A stretch of 7,257 nt of DNA from a virus (IMGVR_UViG_2609459831_000014), one strand, 5' to 3'; numbered from the stretch's first letter, positions 1 to 7,257 are shown. Numbers and translations: made by a program. Notes: generated by a model from the sequence alone, not told the origin.

Positions 1-7
1 AAGAAAT

Positions 8-40
8 AGGGCTTCCACCTGGGAAGCCCTTTCTTTTTAT
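8..40. terminator. GC-rich hairpin (stem 8-16 / 22-30, loop ACCTG) followed by TTCTTTTTAT on the + strand; intrinsic-terminator-like, possibly bidirectional
   Basis: Seen directly: AGGGCTTCC / GGAAGCCCT perfect 9-bp inverted repeat, T-run at 31-40 on +, A-rich tract before it. Would terminate a + strand gene ending left of the window and may also serve pspG on the minus strand. Confidence 0.5.
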
Positions 41-165
41 AGTTCGGCTGTATGTAGGGTACAGCACGATGAATCTGTTAGAGGCGCAATAGTGACAGAT
101 TTGATTATCAATTCCTATTTTGTTCTAAGGATAAAACCTTAGGTTGTGATCATCCGCACAATCCC

Positions 166-408
166 TTAGTAACGCCAGCGGTCATAACGCTGATATTTCG
201 GCACTTTTGGTGCTTTAATCGCCTTAATAACCCACACCACCGCAATCGCCAGTAGTAACCACGGCAGCAACTTAATCATCAATGCCAGCATACCGCCGAG
301 GAACATAATGGCCGTCGCCACAACCAGCGCGGCGATAATGCCCAGCAACGAAACGCCGGTGACCATCAGCATGACAAAAAAGCCAATCACAAAAAGTAGT
401 TCCAGCAT
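166..408 (-). CDS. pspG: Phage shock protein G (80 aa small inner-membrane protein)
   Basis: Product MLELLFVIGFFVMLMVTGVSLLGIIAALVVATAIMFLGGMLALMIKLLPWLLLAIAVVWVIKAIKAPKVPKYQRYDRWRY is strongly hydrophobic and matches PspG as I recall it. ATG at 406-408 is preceded by GGGAG at Shine-Dalgarno distance. It lies immediately downstream of dusA, the conserved E. coli arrangement. The 150-aa track ORF 166..618 is an over-extension running through the promoter into dusA. Confidence 0.85.
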   Translation of the reverse strand: MLELLFVIGFFVMLMVTGVSLLGIIAALVVATAIMFLGGMLALMIKLLPWLLLAIAVVWVIKAIKAPKVPKYQRYDRWRY

Positions 409-443
409 GATGCACTCCCAAATATGAAATCTCTTGCTGGCAT

Positions 444-459
444 TACAAGAATCATGCCA
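444..459 (-). promoter_or_regulatory. Candidate sigma54 (-24/-12) promoter for pspG
   Basis: Minus strand reads TGGCAT-GATTC-TTGTA, against the sigma54 consensus TGGCAC-N5-TTGCA (GG at -24, GT in place of GC at -12). It sits ~35-50 nt upstream of the pspG ATG. pspG is a known sigma54/PspF-dependent gene (established knowledge). Confidence 0.5.
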
Positions 460-463
460 AAAA

Positions 464-476
464 TAATCTATTGATT
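464..476 (-). promoter_or_regulatory. IHF-consensus-like site upstream of the candidate sigma54 promoter
   Basis: Minus strand AATCAATAGATTA fits WATCAANNNNTTR. IHF-assisted looping is typical of sigma54 promoters. Sequence match only. Confidence 0.35.
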
Positions 477-488
477 TAACAGCAAAAC

Positions 489-510
489 GCCCCGCGACGG
501 TGCGCAGGGC
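489..510 (-). terminator. Possible intrinsic terminator after dusA
   Basis: On the minus strand GCCCTGCG / CGCGGGGC form an imperfect 8-bp stem (one mismatch) with a 6-nt loop, followed by GTTTTGCT. It lies 30-50 nt past the dusA stop, before the pspG promoter. Confidence 0.35.
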
Positions 511-541
511 GTGGTGAATTTGACTATTTTTTGGTGAAAAG

Positions 542-1579
542 TTAACGCTTATCCGCCACCAGTTTGAGCGCGTGTTCCAGCACATTAATGTCTGCACCCG
601 CTTTATGGGCATTTTCACTTAAATAACGCCGCCACTGCCGCGCGCCAGGAATACCCTGGAACAAGCCCAACATATGCCGGGTAATATGACCGAGATACGT
701 CCCCTGGCTGAGTTCACGCTCAATGTACGGATACATGGCGCGCACTACCGCCACCGGATCGGCATCGATATCCGAGGAACCAAAGATCTCCCGGTCTACC
801 GCCGCCAGAATACCCGGATTCTGATACGCCTCGCGCCCGACCATCACGCCATCCATATGTTGCAGGTGTGCTTTGGCCTCTTCCAGCGACTTGATACCAC
901 CGTTAATCGACATTGTCAGATGCGGAAAGTCACGCTTCAGTTGATACACACGCGGATAATCGAGCGGCGGGATCTCACGGTTTTCTTTCGGACTTAACCC
1001 CGAAAGCCAGGCTTTACGTGCATGGATGATGAACATCTCACACTCGCCTTTGCCGGAAACGGTGTTGATGAAATCGCAGAGAAATTCATAGCTGTCCTGG
1101 TCGTCGATGCCAATACGCGTTTTCACCGTCACCGGAATCGACACCACATCGCGCATCGCTTTCACGCAGTCGGCAACCAGCTGCGCATTACCCATCAGAC
1201 ACGCACCAAACATGCCGTTCTGCACCCGGTCAGACGGGCAGCCGACATTCAGGTTGATCTCATCATATCCACGCGCTTCTGCCAGCTTCGCACACTGCGC
1301 CAGCGCCGCCGGATCGCTACCGCCGAGTTGCAACGCTACCGGATGTTCTTCTTCACTATACGCCAGGTAATCACCTTTACCGTGAATAATCGCCCCTGTA
1401 GTTACCATTTCAGTATACAGCAACGTATTGCGGGAAAGCAGACGCAAGAAATAGCGGCAATGTCTGTCCGTCCAGTCGAGCATAGGAGCAATGCTAAACC
1501 GAGAATTCCAGTAAACACCAGTTTTTTCAGGCATCACGCTGGTTTGATTAATTTTTTGTGTTTCATGATTATCGTGCAT
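542..1579 (-). CDS. dusA: tRNA-dihydrouridine synthase A (Dus family flavin oxidoreductase), 345 aa
   Basis: Full-length ORF with Dus-family hallmarks ([32 protein letters not shown]). ATG at 1577-1579, stop TAA 542-544. Alternative internal start at 1532-1534 (MPEKTG...) would give 330 aa. No clear SD before either start. pspG synteny supports the call. Confidence 0.9.
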
Positions 1580-1612
1580 TTTTGAACATTTCAGGCTATT
1601 TTTCTCGCGTTA

Positions 1613-1648
1613 GGTTCCCGCACAGGTTCCCACGTTTTATGGGAACCC
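1613..1648. repeat. GGTTCCC repeat cluster in the dusA-int divergent intergenic region: direct copies at 1613-1619 and 1626-1632, and a perfect 8-bp inverted repeat GGTTCCCA(1626-1633)-N7-TGGGAACC(1641-1648)
   Basis: Seen directly. It lies 20-55 nt upstream of the int start and 34-70 nt upstream of the dusA start, so it could be an operator, recombinase-binding sites or att-associated sequence. Confidence 0.5.
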
Positions 1649-1667
1649 GAAATAACGAGGTCGTGTA

Positions 1668-2765
1668 ATGGCGTACTATAACATAGAGAAACGACTAAAA
1701 TCCGATGGCACACCACGCTATCGCTGTAATGTGATTATCAAAGAAAAAGGTGTTATCACTTACAGGGAAAGCAAAACATTCCCTAAACATGCTCATGCCA
1801 AAACATGGGGCACACAGAAAGTGATGGAATTAGATCTATATGGCATTCCATCATCAAATGCAGTTGACGGACTTACAGTCCGTGACTTACTACACAAATA
1901 TTTAAATGACCCAAATGCCGGAGGTAAAGCAGGCCGTACTAAAAGATATGTGCTGGAACTGCTTATGGATAGTGACATCTCCGCGATCAAACTATCTGAA
2001 CTGACAGAAAATGACGTAATTGAACATTGCAGGCTAAGAAACAACGCTGGTGCAGGTCCAGCTACAGTTAGCCACGATGTTAGTTATCTTGGCAGTGTTC
2101 TGGATGCTGCCAAACCTGTATATGGAATTAATTACACATCAAACCCAGCAAAAGCCGCTCGTCCATATCTACTTAAACTTGGTTTAATTGGTAAATCAAA
2201 TCGTCGTAATCGTAGACCGGCATCTGATGAACTGGACATGCTCATTGAAGGTCTTCAACAACGATCTACACATAAATGCTCAAAAATTCCGTTCGTTGAT
2301 ATCCTCAAATTTTCTGTGTGGTCATGTATGCGAATCGGTGAAGTATGCCGATTACGATGGGAGGATCTCGATCAGGAACAAAAATCCATACTCGTAAGAG
2401 ACAGGAAAGATCCACGTAAAAAGGAAGGCAACCATATGAAAGTAGCCTTGCTTGGGGAAGCCTGGGATATCGTCCAACGACAACCCAAAAAATCAGAATT
2501 CATTTTTCCATATAACAGCACTTCTGTTACTGCGGGATTCCAGAGGGTAAGAAGCAAATTAGGTATTAAAGATCTGCGATACCATGATTTGCGTAGAGAA
2601 GGGGCAAGTCGCTTATTTGAGGCTGGTTTTAGTATTGAGGAAGTCGCCCAGGTTACAGGGCATCGTTCATTAAACGTGCTATGGCAGGTATATACCGAAC
2701 TGTATCCGAAATCTTTACATAATCGTTTTGAAGAGCTCCAAAGGAGCAGAAATAAGACCTCTTGA
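1668..2765 (+). CDS. int: Tyrosine site-specific integrase, 365 aa, candidate dusA-targeting family
   Basis: ATG 1668 preceded by GAGG (1657-1660). C-terminal catalytic region has the tyrosine-recombinase signature (RYHDLRREGASR with H-x-x-R, then GHRSLNVLWQVYTELY with candidate catalytic Tyr). Divergent from and adjacent to the dusA 5' end. By eye more AT-rich than the dusA/pspG flank. Confidence 0.9.
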   Translation: MAYYNIEKRLKSDGTPRYRCNVIIKEKGVITYRESKTFPKHAHAKTWGTQKVMELDLYGIPSSNAVDGLTVRDLLHKYLNDPNAGGKAGRTKRYVLELLMDSDISAIKLSELTENDVIEHCRLRNNAGAGPATVSHDVSYLGSVLDAAKPVYGINYTSNPAKAARPYLLKLGLIGKSNRRNRRPASDELDMLIEGLQQRSTHKCSKIPFVDILKFSVWSCMRIGEVCRLRWEDLDQEQKSILVRDRKDPRKKEGNHMKVALLGEAWDIVQRQPKKSEFIFPYNSTSVTAGFQRVRSKLGIKDLRYHDLRREGASRLFEAGFSIEEVAQVTGHRSLNVLWQVYTELYPKSLHNRFEELQRSRNKTS

Positions 2766-2767
2766 CA

Positions 2768-2783
2768 CTGTTTATCCATACAG
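2768..2783. promoter_or_regulatory. LexA box 1 (SOS operator), CTGT-N8-ACAG
   Basis: CTGTTTATCCATACAG matches the LexA core CTGT-N8-ACAG. It directly follows a perfect -35 hexamer TTGACA (2762-2767) that overlaps the int stop codon. A -10-like TAAAAA(T) lies at 2785-2791. Confidence 0.65.
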
Positions 2784-2795
2784 TTAAAAATAATG

Positions 2796-2811
2796 CTGTA
2801 TACAAACACAG
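2796..2811. promoter_or_regulatory. LexA box 2 (SOS operator), CTGT-N8-ACAG
   Basis: With flanks TGCTGTATACAAACACAGTA, a close match to the 20-bp consensus TACTGTATATATATACAGTA. Positioned over the predicted transcription start, 16 nt upstream of the dinI-like ATG. Confidence 0.75.
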
Positions 2812-2826
2812 TATAGAGGGACTTTT

Positions 2827-3075
2827 ATGCGTATTGAAATCTGCATAGCCAAAGAAAAAATGACTAAAATGCCAACCGGTGCTGTGGATGCGTTAAAGGA
2901 AGAATTAACCCGACGCATCAGTAAACGTTATGACGATGTAGAGGTGATCGTAAAAGCCACCAGCAACGATGGCCTTTCTGTTACACGCACCGCAGATAAG
3001 GATTCTGCAAAAACTTTTGTTCAGGAGACTCTGAAAGATACCTGGGAATCTGCTGACGAGTGGTTTGTTCACTAA
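2827..3075 (+). CDS. dinI: DinI-family damage-inducible protein (RecA modulator), 82 aa
   Basis: MRIE..IAK...P.GA.DAL..EL.RRI...LSV.....[16 protein letters not shown] follows the DinI pattern including the C-terminal TWESAD-WFV motif. SD AGAGGG 2815-2820. Two LexA boxes immediately upstream. Confidence 0.85.
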
Positions 3076-3141
3076 TTAACACGTAAAATCGGTAACGGCT
3101 GGAAATCATTCAATACTCGCACTATCGAAAGTTCGCCAGCC

Positions 3142-3179
3142 AGCCGCAGCACGTTCTTGCATACGACGTGGCTGCGGCT
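3142..3179. terminator. Interrupted 12-bp hairpin between convergent dinI-like and invertase genes; possible bidirectional terminator
   Basis: AGCCGCAGC(3142-3150)/GCTGCGGCT(3171-3179) plus ACG/CGT with a one-base bulge and 13-nt loop. No convincing U-tract on either strand, hence low confidence. Confidence 0.3.
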
Positions 3180-3218
3180 TCCAACATTAGACAAATAACT
3201 CTTTAAATTGCTTTTAAA

Positions 3219-3782
3219 TTATTTCGTTTGAATGCCAGTAACAGGAAATCGTTTATATAGGGTTGATAGCCCAACGTTATAGATACGTGCAACATAACGC
3301 CGTGATTTCCCTGCCGCTATGAGCGCTCCCATCTGTTGCCACTGCTCGTCGCTAAACTTCGGTCTACGCCCACCAATCCGGCCTTTGGATCTGGCAATAG
3401 CCAAACCAGCTAAAGTTCGCTCGCTATTCAAATCAGATTCATACTGCGCAGCAGAAAGAATATTACGGAAATTATAGCGACCACTTGCTGTTTTCAGGTC
3501 TACGCCATCTGTAATACTCCGAAAATTAACACCTTTTTCGTGCAGATTTTGAAACATCAATAGCGCATGCAGCACATTTCTCCCTATCCGATCTAACTTC
3601 CAGACAATCAACTCATCTCCACTTTTCATCACCGTAATTAATTCCTTTAACACAGGGCGATTAGCTGTTCTGCCACTGGCATATTCTTCATAAATTCGCT
3701 CACAGCCAGCTGACTCAAGTGCAAGACGTTGCAACTCTGTATCCTGATGATTTGTTGATACACGAACATACCCGTAAATCAT
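3219..3782 (-). CDS. pin: Serine recombinase / DNA invertase of the Pin-Gin-Hin-Cin family, 187 aa
   Basis: N-terminus MIYGYVRVSTNHQ carries the catalytic Ser in the YVRVST motif; VWKLDRIGR and a C-terminal helix-turn-helix region (GRIGGRRPK ... STLYKR) are present. Length is typical for this family. Adjacent to an invertible tail-fibre segment. Confidence 0.9.
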   Translation of the reverse strand: MIYGYVRVSTNHQDTELQRLALESAGCERIYEEYASGRTANRPVLKELITVMKSGDELIVWKLDRIGRNVLHALLMFQNLHEKGVNFRSITDGVDLKTASGRYNFRNILSAAQYESDLNSERTLAGLAIARSKGRIGGRRPKFSDEQWQQMGALIAAGKSRRYVARIYNVGLSTLYKRFPVTGIQTK

Positions 3783-3787
3783 GAGTG

Positions 3788-3814
3788 CTTCTCCTGTTGT
3801 AAAAACAGGAGAAG
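3788..3814 (-). promoter_or_regulatory. Perfect 11-bp stem-loop sequestering the invertase Shine-Dalgarno
   Basis: CTTCTCCTGTT(3788-3798) and AACAGGAGAAG(3804-3814) with a 5-nt loop. On the minus-strand mRNA the 3' arm AACAGGAGAAG holds the SD AGGAG, 8 nt before the pin AUG. No U-tract follows, so it is not a terminator. Confidence 0.5.
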
Positions 3815-3850
3815 AGGCGAAATATCACCTGATTCAGAAAAATATTTGAA
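3815..3850 (-). promoter_or_regulatory. Candidate sigma70 promoter for pin
   Basis: Minus strand TTCAAA (fwd 3845-3850) - 17 nt - GATATT (fwd 3821-3826). The -35 overlaps the outer half of the left crossover site. Weak match. Confidence 0.25.
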
Positions 3851-3867
3851 AGGTTGGTTTGGGAGAA
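3842..3867. other. Invertase crossover site, left (gix/hix-like 12+2+12)
   Basis: ATATTTGAAAGG-TT-GGTTTGGGAGAA. The inner half GGTTTGGGAGA is identical, in inverted orientation, to the inner half of the site at 5930-5955. AAACC/GGTTT arms flanking a central dinucleotide resemble Gin/Hin-type sites. Confidence 0.5.
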
Positions 3868-4356
3868 GACTCTGCATTACCTGTTGGGGTGCCTGTTCCG
3901 TGGCCTTCAGCCACTCCGCCTACAGGCTGGCTGAAATGCAATGGTGCAGCTTTTTCTGCTGAAGAATACCCGGAACTGGTAAAGGCTTATCCGACAAATA
4001 AATTGCCTGATTTACGTGGTGAGTTTATTCGTGGCTGGGATGATGGGCGTGGTATTGATGCTGGACGTGCCTTGCTAAGTCTTCAGAATGGAGGAGTGGA
4101 ATCACACACCCACCAGGGACAGCTCTTCAGAGTCAGTGATTATCGTACAAAAGAAATACCAGCATCAGAAGTTATGGGAAGAGGATATATTGCAAGCCTG
4201 ACGCCGGGTGCTGATAGCCCACTTGATTTTGATGATTATTCTGTATCCTCTAATCCAAATGGATATTTTGTCGGGAATCAGAGAACAACAGCATATGGGG
4301 TAAATGAAACCCGCCCACGGAATATTGCATTTAACTATATCGTGAGGGCTGCATAA
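3850..4356 (+). CDS. Silent alternative tail-fibre C-terminal cassette (Sv'-like), promoterless with no own start codon; ~168 codons
   Basis: Frame opens right after TGA at 3847-3849. The track start at 3859 is TTG, an in-frame Leu within K-V-G-L-G-E-D. Product (PVGVPVPWPSATPPTGWLKCNGAAFSAEEYPEL...GEFIRGWDDGRG) is a typical variable tail-fibre C-terminal domain. Stop TAA 4354-4356 overlaps the next ATG (TAATG). Confidence 0.75.
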   Translation, partial: KVGLGEDSALPVGVPVPWPSATPPTGWLKCNGAAFSAEEYPELVKAYPTNKLPDLRGEFIRGWDDGRGIDAGRALLSLQNGGVESHTHQGQLFRVSDYRTKEIPASEVMGRGYIASLTPGADSPLDFDDYSVSSNPNGYFVGNQRTTAYGVNETRPRNIAFNYIVRAA

Positions 4357-4958
4357 TGGATAACGCTGTATTAAATAGCGAGCTTATTGCCACGAAGGCG
4401 GGAAATATTCCTGTCTATAACTATGATGGTGAAACACGGGAATATATTTCCACTTCAAATGAATATCTTTCCGTTGGTGTCGGCATTCCGGCATGTTCCT
4501 GTTTAGATGCCCCTGGCACACATAAGGCTGGTTATGCAATCTGCCGTTCTACAGATTTTAACTCATGGGAATATGTGCCAGATCATCGCGGTGAAATCGT
4601 CTATAACACCGAAACGGGAGATGCCAAAGAAATCACAGCTCCGGGTGATTACCCTGAAAATACAACCACTATCGCACCGTTAACGCCATACGATAAATGG
4701 GATGGTGAGAAATGGGTGACAGATACTGAGGCACAACACGGTGCCGCAGTAGAAGTGGCAGAAGCACAACGCCAGTCACTGATTGATGCAGCAATGGCTT
4801 CCATTAGTCTGATTCAGCTGAAATTGCAGGCCGGGCGGAAGCTGATGCAGGCAGAAACCACCCGACTTAACATTGTGCTGGATTACATTGACGCGGTGAC
4901 GGCAACAGATACCAGCACCGCGCCGGATGTCATCTGGCCTGAACTGCCGGAGGCGTAG
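4356..4958 (+). CDS. Tail fibre assembly protein (Tfa/U'-like chaperone), 200 aa, silent orientation
   Basis: ATG 4356 with SD GAGGG (4344-4348), translationally coupled to the upstream cassette. C-terminus ...DTSTAPDVIWPELPEA carries the conserved Tfa terminal motif. Confidence 0.8.
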   Translation: MDNAVLNSELIATKAGNIPVYNYDGETREYISTSNEYLSVGVGIPACSCLDAPGTHKAGYAICRSTDFNSWEYVPDHRGEIVYNTETGDAKEITAPGDYPENTTTIAPLTPYDKWDGEKWVTDTEAQHGAAVEVAEAQRQSLIDAAMASISLIQLKLQAGRKLMQAETTRLNIVLDYIDAVTATDTSTAPDVIWPELPEA

Positions 4959-5367
4959 GCCATTCAATATCTGGCACACTGGAGGTATCAACCAGCTCCA
5001 GTGCGTCCAGATAATCCAGCCACGAATTATATTGCGCCAGTTCCTCGCCTTTCAGACGACCAATAGCGGCTTTACCGGGCCATTGTTTACTGTTCATGTA
5101 TTCGTTGGCCTGATTAATTAATAGCTGTCTTTTTGACTCAGAAATTTCAATAAGTTCTTCATGCGTGGGTGAAGGAATATCTGCCCACGCAGGCATTCCG
5201 TCTGCACCTGCAATACGTCGCTTACCCTGCGGAGGTGTCGCCATAAACGACTCGGCACGTCGGGTTTCAATATCTTTTGCATCATCAGGCCATGTGCCGG
5301 AATCGCGGTATACGGCCTCATTACCAGCCAGATAAAACGCATTTTTTTTAGCACTGTATTTGTACAT
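4930..5367 (-). CDS. Tail fibre assembly protein (Tfa/U-like chaperone), 145 aa, expressed orientation
   Basis: ATG 5365-5367 lies 1 nt after the tail-fibre stop, with a GGGA-type SD inside the fibre 3' end. C-terminus ...DTSSVPDIEWPTPPAVQAR carries the Tfa motif. Its 3' end overlaps the convergent tfa' by 29 nt. Confidence 0.8.
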   Translation of the reverse strand: MYKYSAKKNAFYLAGNEAVYRDSGTWPDDAKDIETRRAESFMATPPQGKRRIAGADGMPAWADIPSPTHEELIEISESKRQLLINQANEYMNSKQWPGKAAIGRLKGEELAQYNSWLDYLDALELVDTSSVPDIEWPTPPAVQAR

Positions 5368-5368
5368 A

Positions 5369-6232
5369 TTATTTCCCTACCGCAATCCAGAAAAATGAAC
5401 TCATGCTGGCTACTGGTGCTCCGCCCGCTGTTGGAATCATCAGATTTCGGACGCCGCATCCTAAATTAGTTATCGTTGGCGCTGAAATTACTGGCGACTG
5501 AACTACGTTAGGAAGCGATACCTGCTGAGGACCAAATCCCACATACATCGGGTATGCAGAGAACGCGACAGGAAACGTAATAAAGATCTCTCCAGTTGAT
5601 GATGGATTGGCTGTCCCCCACTGAATAATCAGACCTGACGGTAATTTTTGCCAGCCAGGGCTGGTCAGGCTGGATGTGAAGTCATTCATATCCGGAATCT
5701 GATTTGCCCCTGAGCCAACATCCCTTTGAGCCGCACTTTTCAGATCAAGATAAGTTCTTAGTTCAGCCTTATCCTTACCGCTTAAATCTGTCAGTGTCTG
5801 GTCTTTTGGTTGCGCATAGTCTTTTGTTGCCAGACGAACTACTGTATTTGTTCTGGCGAATCGCATATACGGGGCATTGACGTTACTACTGTCAAACCCT
5901 GCAATTTTACATTCATCACCAATTAATGCATCTCCCAAACCAAGGTTTTCGAGAGCCGTTTTCACCGTGCCATCCGATTTGATATCGCCAAACGGATTCT
6001 TGCGGCTTAACAGCAGCGCACGAAGCGCGGTAAGCAACTGGTCGTGCCGCGCCTTCTCCAGGCTGGCACCGGATGCCTCCACCACGCTGCAGAGTTCTTC
6101 CTGCAACATATCAAAGTAGTCATCATCCAGATCGGTGGCAGGTGTGCCGGTCTGGGGGTTACCACGGGTAAAACCGTTCTTCCCCGCGCCGAACTTATCC
6201 TTCTGCGCGGTTTTCGTGTCTATACGATGCAT
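5369..6232 (-). CDS. Phage tail fibre protein, 287 aa: constant N-terminal part (6232 to ~5944) plus variable C-terminal part (5943 to 5369)
   Basis: ATG 6230-6232 with SD GGAG 7 nt upstream, starting 3 nt after the stop of the upstream tail gene. The crossover site lies inside the gene at codons ...ENLGLGD.... Size and position match an e14 StfP / Mu S-like fibre (from memory). Confidence 0.85.
5930..5955. other. Invertase crossover site, right (inside the tail fibre gene)
   Basis: ATCTCCCAAACC-AA-GGTTTTCGAGAG, an imperfect dyad. Its inner half is the reverse complement of GGTTTGGGAGA at 3856-3866. Confidence 0.5.
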
Positions 6233-6235
6233 GGA

Positions 6236-6820
6236 TTACTCCGGATATTTAAAAATCACATAGGTATGCGACGGGCAGAGTTTGTTAAGAACACACTCGA
6301 CAACGGTGTCGCCCCAGATACGCAGGGCAGAATCACAGGGATCGCCACATGTCATCCAGGTGGTGTTGGTGGCGGCTGGCATGTTGATCTGCCAGTAATA
6401 CCGCCATTCCGGCGCATTCACCGCGTCAGTACAGGCCGATGAGCAGGTGAAGGTGCTTTTGTCGTATCGCGTGATGGTGGCATCTGGCCTGCCCAGGGCA
6501 GCAAGCTGTGCAAGATAAAAATCCTCGTTGATGCCGCCCGCCAGGTTAACCTTCGCATCCAGCCGTTGCTGACGCTGGCGAAGAGTCTGCGTTCCCGCCG
6601 GAATACATTCATCCGGCAGACCGCACAGACGCTCCCAGCGGTTTATCAGTTCAGTGGTGGTGCGCGGATCCAGCTCCCGCATCAGGGCATCCGCACGCTG
6701 ATGAACGCGGGTTAATGACGGTGCCGCACCGGCAATCGCCGGATCTCTGGCTGACCACGCCGGACCGGGTGGCAACAGTGCCGACAACAGACGGATGTAA
6801 TCATCGTTTGTCACGTCCAT
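6236..6820 (-). CDS. Phage tail/baseplate protein, 194 aa (Mu gp48 / e14 YmfQ-like by position and size)
   Basis: ATG 6818-6820 and stop TAA 6236-6238, 3 nt before the tail fibre start. Its start overlaps the stop of the upstream gene by 10 nt (ATGGACGTGA). Product assignment rests on synteny and size, not on a recognised motif. Confidence 0.7.
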
Positions 6821-7257
6821 GAAATCGTCCCCAGAACCGCCAGTTCATTTTTCGCAATGGAGATATTGTCTGCCGGTGCAAGCAACTGATGGCTATATTC
6901 CCCGTTCGCACCGGAAATCGCCTCACTGATACGCGATACCTTCAGTTCTCCCTGCGGATAACCATCACGCAGAAGAAACGAACGCAACTCCGCGGTGATG
7001 GCGGCTCGTATTTCTGGTGTGTCCGGCGTCACGCGGATATGAAAATCCACCGTATGTGCCACCGGCCTGAATACATACAAATCAGAGCCTGCCACCGGGG
7101 CCAGTGGCACGATATGTTGTCTTGCTGCCGTTTCCGTTGATTCTTCCGGAATGGGATTAATCAGGTCACTGCTGGCAATCATCACACCGACAGTTCCCGT
7201 TCCCATCCAGTGACGGTATGTCCATGCGCGGGTAATGCCGGGCACTTCTTTAGCCCA
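6811..7257 (-). CDS. Phage baseplate protein, C-terminal part only (baseplate J-like by synteny); 5' end lies beyond the window
   Basis: Minus-strand frame is open to the window edge: codons upstream of the track start (GTG at 7243-7245) read W-A-K-E with no stop. Stop TGA 6811-6813 overlaps the next gene start. Family assignment is inferred from the gp47-gp48-S order of Mu-like tail modules. Confidence 0.65.

Follow-up and report, generated by a model that had tools for sequence, protein, structure and literature searches.

The probable attL end of an SfV/e14-type prophage in the 5′ end of dusA, an already described kind of Escherichia coli prophage

The stretch of DNA analysed here, hereafter the window, comprises 7,257 nucleotides of a viral sequence (IMGVR_UViG_2609459831_000014). 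ORF listing combined with Pfam and PHROGs searches established the gene order as dusA (−), int (+), dinI (+), pin (−), an invertible tail-fibre cassette and Mu/e14-type baseplate genes (−). This agrees with the preliminary description, in which int and dinI were followed on the opposite strand by pin and the tail genes. Its statement that excisionase, repressor and lysis genes are absent in between was equally borne out, as the ORF listing of the window contained no such ORF between dusA, int, dinI, pin and the tail genes. A search of the window against Rfam returned no family at gathering threshold. The features of the window are the following:

542–1579, minus strand: dusA (Pfam Dus, E=2e-104)
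1476–1483: attL crossover core, left boundary of the prophage inside dusA, reading TCGAGCAT on the plus strand
1484–1579, minus strand: first 32 codons of dusA, brought in by the phage in place of the chromosomal 5′ end, which is displaced
1612–1648: GGTTCCC in three copies, two in direct and one in inverted orientation, in the interval from attL to int
1668–2765, plus strand: int, tyrosine integrase of the dusA-specific type (Phage_integrase, E=1e-20)
2762–2811, plus strand: promoter-like site upstream of dinI with two perfect CTGT-N8-ACAG palindromes resembling LexA boxes
2827–3075, plus strand: dinI-like gene for a RecA-filament binding protein (Pfam DinI, E=1e-19; phrog_189)
3142–3179, plus strand: strong hairpin, folding at −35.5 kcal/mol (z=−3.2), where the int-dinI module ends on the right
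3219–3782, minus strand: pin-type serine DNA invertase of the Gin/Hin/Pin kind (Resolvase and HTH_7)
3849–3866: left crossover site of the invertible segment (18-nt inverted repeat)
3859–4356, plus strand: silent alternative tail-fibre C-terminus without an N-terminus of its own (Pfam Collar, E=1.5e-15)
4356–4958, plus strand: tail fibre assembly chaperone of the silent fibre variant (Caudo_TAP, E=4e-30)
4930–5367, minus strand: tail fibre assembly chaperone of the expressed fibre variant (Caudo_TAP, E=2e-29)
5369–6232, minus strand: expressed tail fibre (Gp53-like_C, E=7e-13; phrog_1396)
5931–5948: right crossover site of the invertible segment (18-nt inverted repeat)
6236–6820, minus strand: Mu gp48/YmfQ baseplate wedge protein (Phage_Mu_Gp48, E=2e-26)
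6811–7257, minus strand: C-terminal part of baseplate J/Mu gp47, cut at the window end (Baseplate_J, E=2e-15)

Only 61 bp separate int from dinI, and 143 bp lie between the convergent dinI and pin genes. The complete baseplate J gene, as read in an identical Logan contig (L005), encodes 352 aa.

The left boundary of the element was established by a four-way alignment of attL (the window), attB (K-12), attR (23CRST025) and attP (phage SKA5), in which the partners switch at 1476–1483. This core, rather than position 1668, where the region singled out in the preliminary description begins, is the true left end of the element. It agrees with the attB reported for Φstx2dact, TCCAGTCGAGCATGGGAGC (PMC6328086). 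Over 1476–1582 the window shares 99.6% identity with SKA5 but only 83% with the chromosomal dusA′ remnant that 23CRST025 carries at attR, so that attL and the attR of this relative form an imperfect direct repeat of 107 bp (83% identical). The dusA gene stays intact because the phage brings a new 5′ end for it; the 5′ end of dusA is replaced likewise by the dusA islands (PMC4482086). Between attL and int, AGGTTCCC occurs twice in the 1612–1648 region, against 0.1 occurrences expected, and in SKA5 four of the eight GGTTCCC copies in the whole genome fall within 233 bp around attP. The GGTTCCC repeats are candidate arm-type integrase sites.

The catalytic motifs R222, H306-x-x-R309, H332 and Y342 were found in the integrase, the gene for which is 97% identical at the nucleotide level to int of mEp460 and Φ1720a-02. 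It is divergent from dusA and lies 88 bp off the dusA start at 1579. The dusA-associated integrases (DAI) are an established family, with prtN present in 64% of the islands (Farrugia et al. 2015, PMC4482086), and the integrase of Φ1720a-02 has been assigned to this group (PMC6328086). As in the DAI islands (PMC4482086), a tyrosine recombinase is located directly beside the 5′ end of dusA, this 5′ end is replaced, and imperfect direct repeats lie within dusA (attR being taken from the relative). Position, att site and the identity to int of Φ1720a-02 point to membership of the group, and the element, in which we see no essential difference from the islands, would be one of its prophage members. 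The likeness probably extends to prtN: relatives of the element carry a PrtN-family gene near attR (23CRST025 and H10407), which the annotation of mEp460 calls excisionase, and the PrtN protein is presumably the excisionase. A simple promoter scan revealed no strong sigma-70-like promoter upstream of int; the gene may nevertheless have a promoter of its own.

The product of pin is a small serine recombinase with the N-terminal catalytic serine (Ser9 within YVRVST) and C-terminal helix-turn-helix domain that are characteristic of Gin, Hin, Cin and Pin. It matches Resolvase (E=3e-36) and HTH_7 (E=7e-12) in Pfam and aligns with the Gin structure 3uj3 over residues 2–180 (E=3.6e-56). Orthology to pinE of e14 was considered and rejected, since the DNA identity is ~79% and limited to the 5′ part of the gene. 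The two crossover sites are complementary at 89%, the right one reading ATCTCCCAAACC-AA-GGTTTTCGAGAG, and similarity to the relatives and to the corresponding cassette of E. coli B stops exactly at the left one. The right site lies inside the ORF of the expressed fibre, which consists of a constant N-terminus (6232–5949) and a variable C-terminus within the invertible segment. When the segment is inverted in silico, the silent C-terminus fuses in frame to the constant N-terminus, yielding a 263-aa fibre followed by a 200-aa chaperone. Inverted sites thus bound oppositely oriented fibre C-termini and chaperones with the reading frame kept, as in the Gin/Hin/Cin/Pin switches. Homologous chaperone DNA is oppositely oriented in H10407 and 23CRST025, the two cassettes not being identical. 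Pin would be expected to flip the 2.1-kb cassette, swapping the fibre C-terminus together with its chaperone.

The G, C and P segments of Mu, P1 and e14, served by Gin, Cin and Pin, are built in the same way, with a serine invertase beside a segment that is bounded by short inverted sites, crossover within the fibre gene, and exchange of fibre C-terminus and chaperone. Unlike these segments, the cassette described here is 99.7% identical to one on a P2 gpH-type fibre in E. coli B. An exact 63-mer spanning the fibre/cassette junction had no match among species-representative genome contigs, which do not include the source strain, and our literature search retrieved nothing specific on dusA, tail fibre and invertase combined.

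Full-length relatives of the element are available. The closed genome of 23CRST025 carries a dusA prophage of ~38.1 kb that is 99.4–99.6% identical to the window over positions 1–4086, and the closed genome of ETEC H10407 carries one of ~39.6 kb. Both contain head, terminase, lysis, Q, cI/cro and PrtN genes, with replication genes likewise on the far side, and both end in a dusA′ remnant. In the deposited genome of Escherichia phage SKA5 (OR670062.1; 37.6 kb), on which our literature search found no paper, the order dusA′-int-dinI-invertase-fibres is the same as in the window, with 98.1% identity across 1476–4052. HK97-type capsid/protease, portal, P27-type terminase, Q and cI/cro genes are present in all relatives inspected. 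SKA5, H10407 and 23CRST025 share with the window the succession dusA′-int-dinI-invertase-invertible fibres-Mu-like baseplate, the baseplate being 95–96% identical; they differ in the content of the invertible cassette (window positions 4059–4306 and 5133–5928 have no match there), and their cargo near attR varies. SfV/e14-type myoviruses typically have a short fibre gene after baseplate genes of the Mu gp47/gp48 type, as does the window, and the baseplate/fibre region is 96.5–96.7% identical at the nucleotide level to orf19–21 of SfV and jayE-ymfQ-stfP of e14. It is therefore highly likely that the window represents the attL end of an SfV/e14-type temperate phage that a dusA-specific tyrosine integrase has inserted at the 5′ end of dusA, that is, of a phage with a Mu-like contractile tail, an HK97-type head and lambdoid regulation.

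The preliminary description had left three readings side by side: a differently organized complete prophage, a degraded remnant and a tail-only, tailocin-like element. The first of these is favoured by the relatives of 38–40 kb and by SKA5, and the other two lacked support. It is improbable that only int, dinI, pin and a partial tail are left at dusA, in the manner of the deleted e14 relic at icd. The window does hold just the end of the tail module, with the source record (JOQG01000009.1) stopping 96 bp beyond it; e14 shows that this type of phage decays to relics; and in E. coli B the same fibre cassette resides in a defective P2-like prophage, the invertase of which is broken. However, none of the ORFs in the window is disrupted, which holds for int, pin and the two fibre variants alike, all close relatives inspected are full length, and a Logan contig of 33.4 kb (13 kb of it read) is 100% identical over 3089–7257 and then runs on through a complete tail module. 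Cluster representatives homologous to the tail sheath of this contig differ from it by 4–7 residues. The break in the source contig is itself explicable, because baseplate J repeats e14-type copies (96–97% identical) that are common in E. coli. As the source contig ends so close to the window, completeness of the prophage copy in the source genome is something we infer from these comparisons: the copy is presumably complete.

Domestication of an R-type tailocin beside dusA would account for contractile-tail baseplate and fibre genes in a window from which head genes are absent, but this possibility is extremely remote. R-type tailocins are tail clusters without integrase, capsid and packaging genes, whereas the window contains an intact site-specific integrase, a host-range invertase and an attL at which the 5′ end of dusA is of phage origin, all of them phage features. 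Moreover, relatives with 95–99% identical DNA possess portal, protease, capsid and terminase genes, and none devoid of head genes was seen.

The junction between int-dinI and pin could also be suspected of being a chimeric assembly that joins an int-dinI module to the tail module of another prophage, given that the Logan contig breaks at window position 3089, between dinI and pin, and that the int-dinI block recurs in many genomes (712 of the 5426 complete E. coli genomes). The version of the block with pin adjoining is, however, present in 67 of these genomes, with identity of up to 100% over 1450–3860 in H10407, as well as in the genome of phage SKA5. We rejected an artefact, the probability of which is close to nil, because the dusA-int-dinI-pin junction is carried by closed genomes.

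The integrated SfV/e14-type phage offers a simple explanation for the order of its modules, which had been considered unusual unless the very same order were already on record for some known type of complete prophage. Such prophages are present in 23CRST025 and H10407, the phage SKA5 shares the order, and int adjoining attL has been noted before in Φstx2dact, a phage of dusA whose int is 97% identical and in which the orientation was termed noncanonical but previously observed (PMC6328086). The gene organization is thus not new, but that of an already described kind of E. coli prophage. The arrangement given for e14 in the preliminary description proved correct, with int at one end and pinE-mcrA at the other. 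e14 shares with the window a Pin-type invertible fibre cassette and, as does SfV, baseplate J, YmfQ and a fibre N-terminus that are 96.5–96.7% identical, but it is integrated at icd and its intE-xisE genes lie opposite the pinE end.

The order appears odd because attP sits upstream of int, which makes the prophage a circular permutation of a conventional map. In lambda and e14 attP is located downstream of int, and SfV has attP-int-xis in the lambda arrangement. The circular map of the phage would be conventional, running from the early-left operon through a PrtN-type excisionase gene, attP, int and dinI to the converging pin, tail fibre and tail genes. Integration would open this circle between xis and int, so that int-dinI would be left beside the invertase/tail end at attL, while xis, immunity, replication, Q and lysis genes would be sent past the structural genes to adjoin attR. 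In mEp460 the excisionase gene is followed by attP, int and dinI, and these in turn by the tail fibre end. mEp460 and Φstx2dact/Φ1720a-02, which are lambdoid siphoviruses in dusA, share with the window a 97% identical int-dinI-attP module, the att core, the replacement of the dusA 5′ end and the location of int at attL beside the tail-fibre end. They differ in having lambda-type non-contractile tails with an Stf/J fibre and no invertase; in addition, Φstx2dact carries stx2.

A mosaic origin had been suggested from the AT-richness of the int-dinI block and is supported directly by sequence comparison: the block shares 97% identity with siphovirus mEp460, the fibre cassette matches the P2-like prophage of E. 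coli B at the 99.7% mentioned above, and the baseplate, including ymfQ, shows 96.7% nucleotide identity to e14. The compositional observation stands only in part. At 0.42, the GC content of int-dinI is lower than that of the chromosomal part (0.51; dusA 0.54) and of the baseplate genes (0.56), but the values for pin (0.44) and the fibre cassette (0.47) show these to be almost as rich in AT.

The dinI product belongs to the DinI family of ~80-aa proteins, matching both the profile (63 of 63 Pfam positions) and the structure (PDB 1GHH, E=3.7e-13). A promoter upstream of dinI is marked in the annotation of mEp460 as well, and the gene is probably a separately promoted moron that travels with int under the control of LexA, SOS control being predicted from the LexA-box-like palindromes. 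Identity to mEp460 ends at 3180, which places the module junction at ~3180. A terminator scan found no terminator in the dinI-pin interval, where there is instead the strong hairpin, which has no T-tract. Most E. coli chromosomes keep a decayed dinI 3′ end and its downstream sequence between ecpE and ykgJ.

Under a further, rather doubtful reading, the int-dinI block (1476–3180) may constitute a portable unit complete in itself, an 'integration plus SOS-tuning' cassette that sets the induction threshold. Integration would then uncouple int from xis and the pL operon by placing them at opposite ends of the prophage. The tandem-LexA-box promoter would drive DinI upon DNA damage, DinI would damp the RecA-stimulated cleavage of the LexA-family repressor of the phage, and the cassette would in this way set the induction threshold for any head and tail modules joined to it, with the conserved hairpin at 3142–3179 marking the recombination junction.

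As a discovery, the prophage in dusA matters little, and its value is mainly that of a worked example. Mildly useful to phage biology, although not new in kind, are the three-way mosaic with sharp junctions (lambdoid siphovirus, P2-like, and e14 plus SfV) and the apparently SOS-wired dinI. The example illustrates that a complete prophage can be mistaken for a tail-only fragment when the window stops where the contig does, and that the map of a prophage is that of the phage circularly permuted, so that where attP lies with respect to int determines which modules come to adjoin one another.

Three sources, an ORF list, Pfam and PHROGs, agree on the gene content of the window and bear out the layout proposed in the preliminary description:

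542–1579, minus strand: dusA (Dus, E=2e-104)
1668–2765, plus strand: tyrosine integrase (Phage_integrase)
2827–3075, plus strand: dinI-like gene (PDB 1GHH, E=4e-13)
3219–3782, minus strand: Gin/Pin-type serine invertase (Gin 3uj3, E=4e-56)
3859–4356, plus strand: promoterless fibre C-terminus (Collar domain)
4356–4958, plus strand: fibre chaperone, alternative-fibre side (Caudo_TAP)
4930–5367, minus strand: fibre chaperone, expressed-fibre side (Caudo_TAP)
5369–6232, minus strand: expressed fibre (Gp53-like_C)
6236–6820, minus strand: Mu gp48/YmfQ (Phage_Mu_Gp48)
6811–7257, minus strand: baseplate J, C-terminal part (Baseplate_J)

The int-dinI gap (61 bp) and the dinI-pin gap (143 bp) hold no further gene according to the same sources. 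Just upstream of dinI lie two perfect LexA-box-like palindromes, CTGTTTATCCATACAG (2768–2783) and CTGTATACAAACACAG (2796–2811), which overlap and follow a promoter-like site, TTGACA-18-AAAAAT (region 2762–2811). The dinI gene of the prophage is therefore probably a moron that has its own promoter and is induced by the SOS response. An unannotated relic ∼86% identical to window 3018–3169 is found between ecpE and ykgJ in most E. coli chromosomes (L012, 2431–2652); it contains the 3' end of a dinI-like gene with its downstream region, and tblastn recovers decayed DinI residues 34–82.

Alignment of attL (window), attB (K-12), attR (23CRST025) and attP (phage SKA5) displays a classical partner switch at TCGAGCAT (1476–1483). 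The prophage therefore begins within dusA and provides its first 32 codons; in the relatives, the ousted chromosomal 5' end persists as a pseudogene at attR. An identical att core has been published for the dusA phage Φstx2dact (PMC6328086), and the dusA-associated integrase family is characterised by just such an exchange of the 5' end of dusA (PMC4482086). GGTTCCC repeats flank the core on both sides, with three copies at 1612–1648, between attL and int; in SKA5, four of the eight genome-wide copies fall inside 233 bp around attP (18013–18245). These repeats are candidate arm-type integrase binding sites.

Of 5426 complete E. coli genomes, 712 carry the int-dinI block at ≥80% coverage, and in 67 pin adjoins it. 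Closed genomes, which rule out an assembly chimera, include 23CRST025 (prophage of about 38.1 kb, 99.4–99.6% identical over window 1–4086) and ETEC H10407 (about 39.6 kb, 100% over 1450–3860). Both elements are complete prophages of known type and carry exactly the module order of the window at their left end. In full they run as follows: dusA, int, dinI, pin and fibres; Mu-like baseplate and tail; HK97-type head; portal and terminase; HNH, lysis and Q; replication genes, cro and a LexA-family repressor; early-left genes and a PrtN-family protein; cargo genes; and the dusA' remnant. The cargo near attR differs between related prophages (L002, 14828–15872; L010, 4532–6906); it encodes a Panacea-domain protein, joined in H10407 by a CoiA-like protein, and may represent toxin-antitoxin or defence morons placed between attP and the excisionase. 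The presence of head genes in the relatives, together with the integrase and attL of the window, contradicts the view that the element is a tailocin.

The window is identical to positions 97–7353 of E. coli draft contig JOQG01000009.1 (GCA_000713975.1), which stops 96 bp past the window end, within baseplate J. Because the contig ends there, a degraded remnant keeps a small probability for the source-strain copy. Against it, all window ORFs are intact, all relatives inspected are complete, and a 33.4-kb Logan contig from a second assembly, 100% identical to window 3089–7257, extends across an entire Mu-like tail module (J, gp46, gp45, gp44, DNA circularisation protein, tape measure, tube and sheath), nearest among complete genomes to that of 23CRST025. 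In the Logan assembly, the break falls at 3089, in the stretch that separates dinI from pin. As the modules at both break points are repeated in E. coli genomes, repeat-induced assembly breaks are likely.

Block-by-block identities give direct evidence for the mosaic origin that had been proposed from composition. Window 1476–3180 (int-dinI) is 97% identical to mEp460 and other lambdoid siphoviruses, 3849–5954 (invertible cassette) 99.7% to one in a defective P2-like prophage found in E. coli B, BL21 and C, and 5931–7257 (baseplate) 96.7% to e14 and 96.5% to SfV. Int-dinI is indeed AT-rich (GC 0.42) relative to the chromosomal part (0.51) and the baseplate (0.56), but this property is shared by pin (0.44) and the fibre cassette (0.47). 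A strong GC-rich hairpin lacking a T-tract (3142–3179; region fold −35.5 kcal/mol, z=−3.2) separates the convergent dinI and pin, where mEp460 identity stops (3180).

The cassette is bounded by an 18-nt inverted repeat (3849–3866/5931–5948; 89% complementary), one arm of which lies within the fibre ORF. In-silico inversion of 3867–5930 preserves the reading frame and gives an alternative fibre of 263 aa, with its 200-aa chaperone immediately behind it; homologous chaperone DNA is oppositely oriented in H10407 and 23CRST025. In E. coli B (REL606; L011, 6001–8106), the cassette is instead joined to a P2 gpH-type fibre, and the invertase next to it is a pseudogene. Identity with E. coli B ends at the crossover sites, suggesting cassette exchange between unrelated tail types.

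The circular order seen directly in the deposited genome of Escherichia phage SKA5 (37.6 kb, 98.1% identical over window 1476–4052) is early-left genes, dusA 5' fragment (attP), int, dinI, invertase, fibres and tail. In mEp460, which matches window 1476–3180 at 97.2% identity across int-dinI, it is exonuclease, PrtN-family excisionase, two small reverse ORFs, attP, int, dinI and a converging tail fibre gene. Seen on the circle, int thus keeps its usual position, flanked by the early-left operon on one side and the distal end of the late operon on the other. The sole difference from lambda and e14 (the latter having its pin end, pinE-mcrA, opposite int, as the preliminary description correctly states) is that attP lies upstream rather than downstream of int. 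Because of this, integration cuts between xis and int: int-dinI ends up at attL beside the tail end, and the xis, immunity and lysis genes are carried to the far side. For Φstx2dact, an orientation with int adjacent to attL has been described as noncanonical but previously observed, and formation of attP was shown to require int (PMC6328086). We infer that the PrtN homologue is the cognate directionality factor, which fits the presence of prtN homologues in 64% of dusA islands (Farrugia et al., PMC4482086). The arrangement, initially regarded as unusual, is in fact a known and fairly common way for dusA-integrating phages to be organised.
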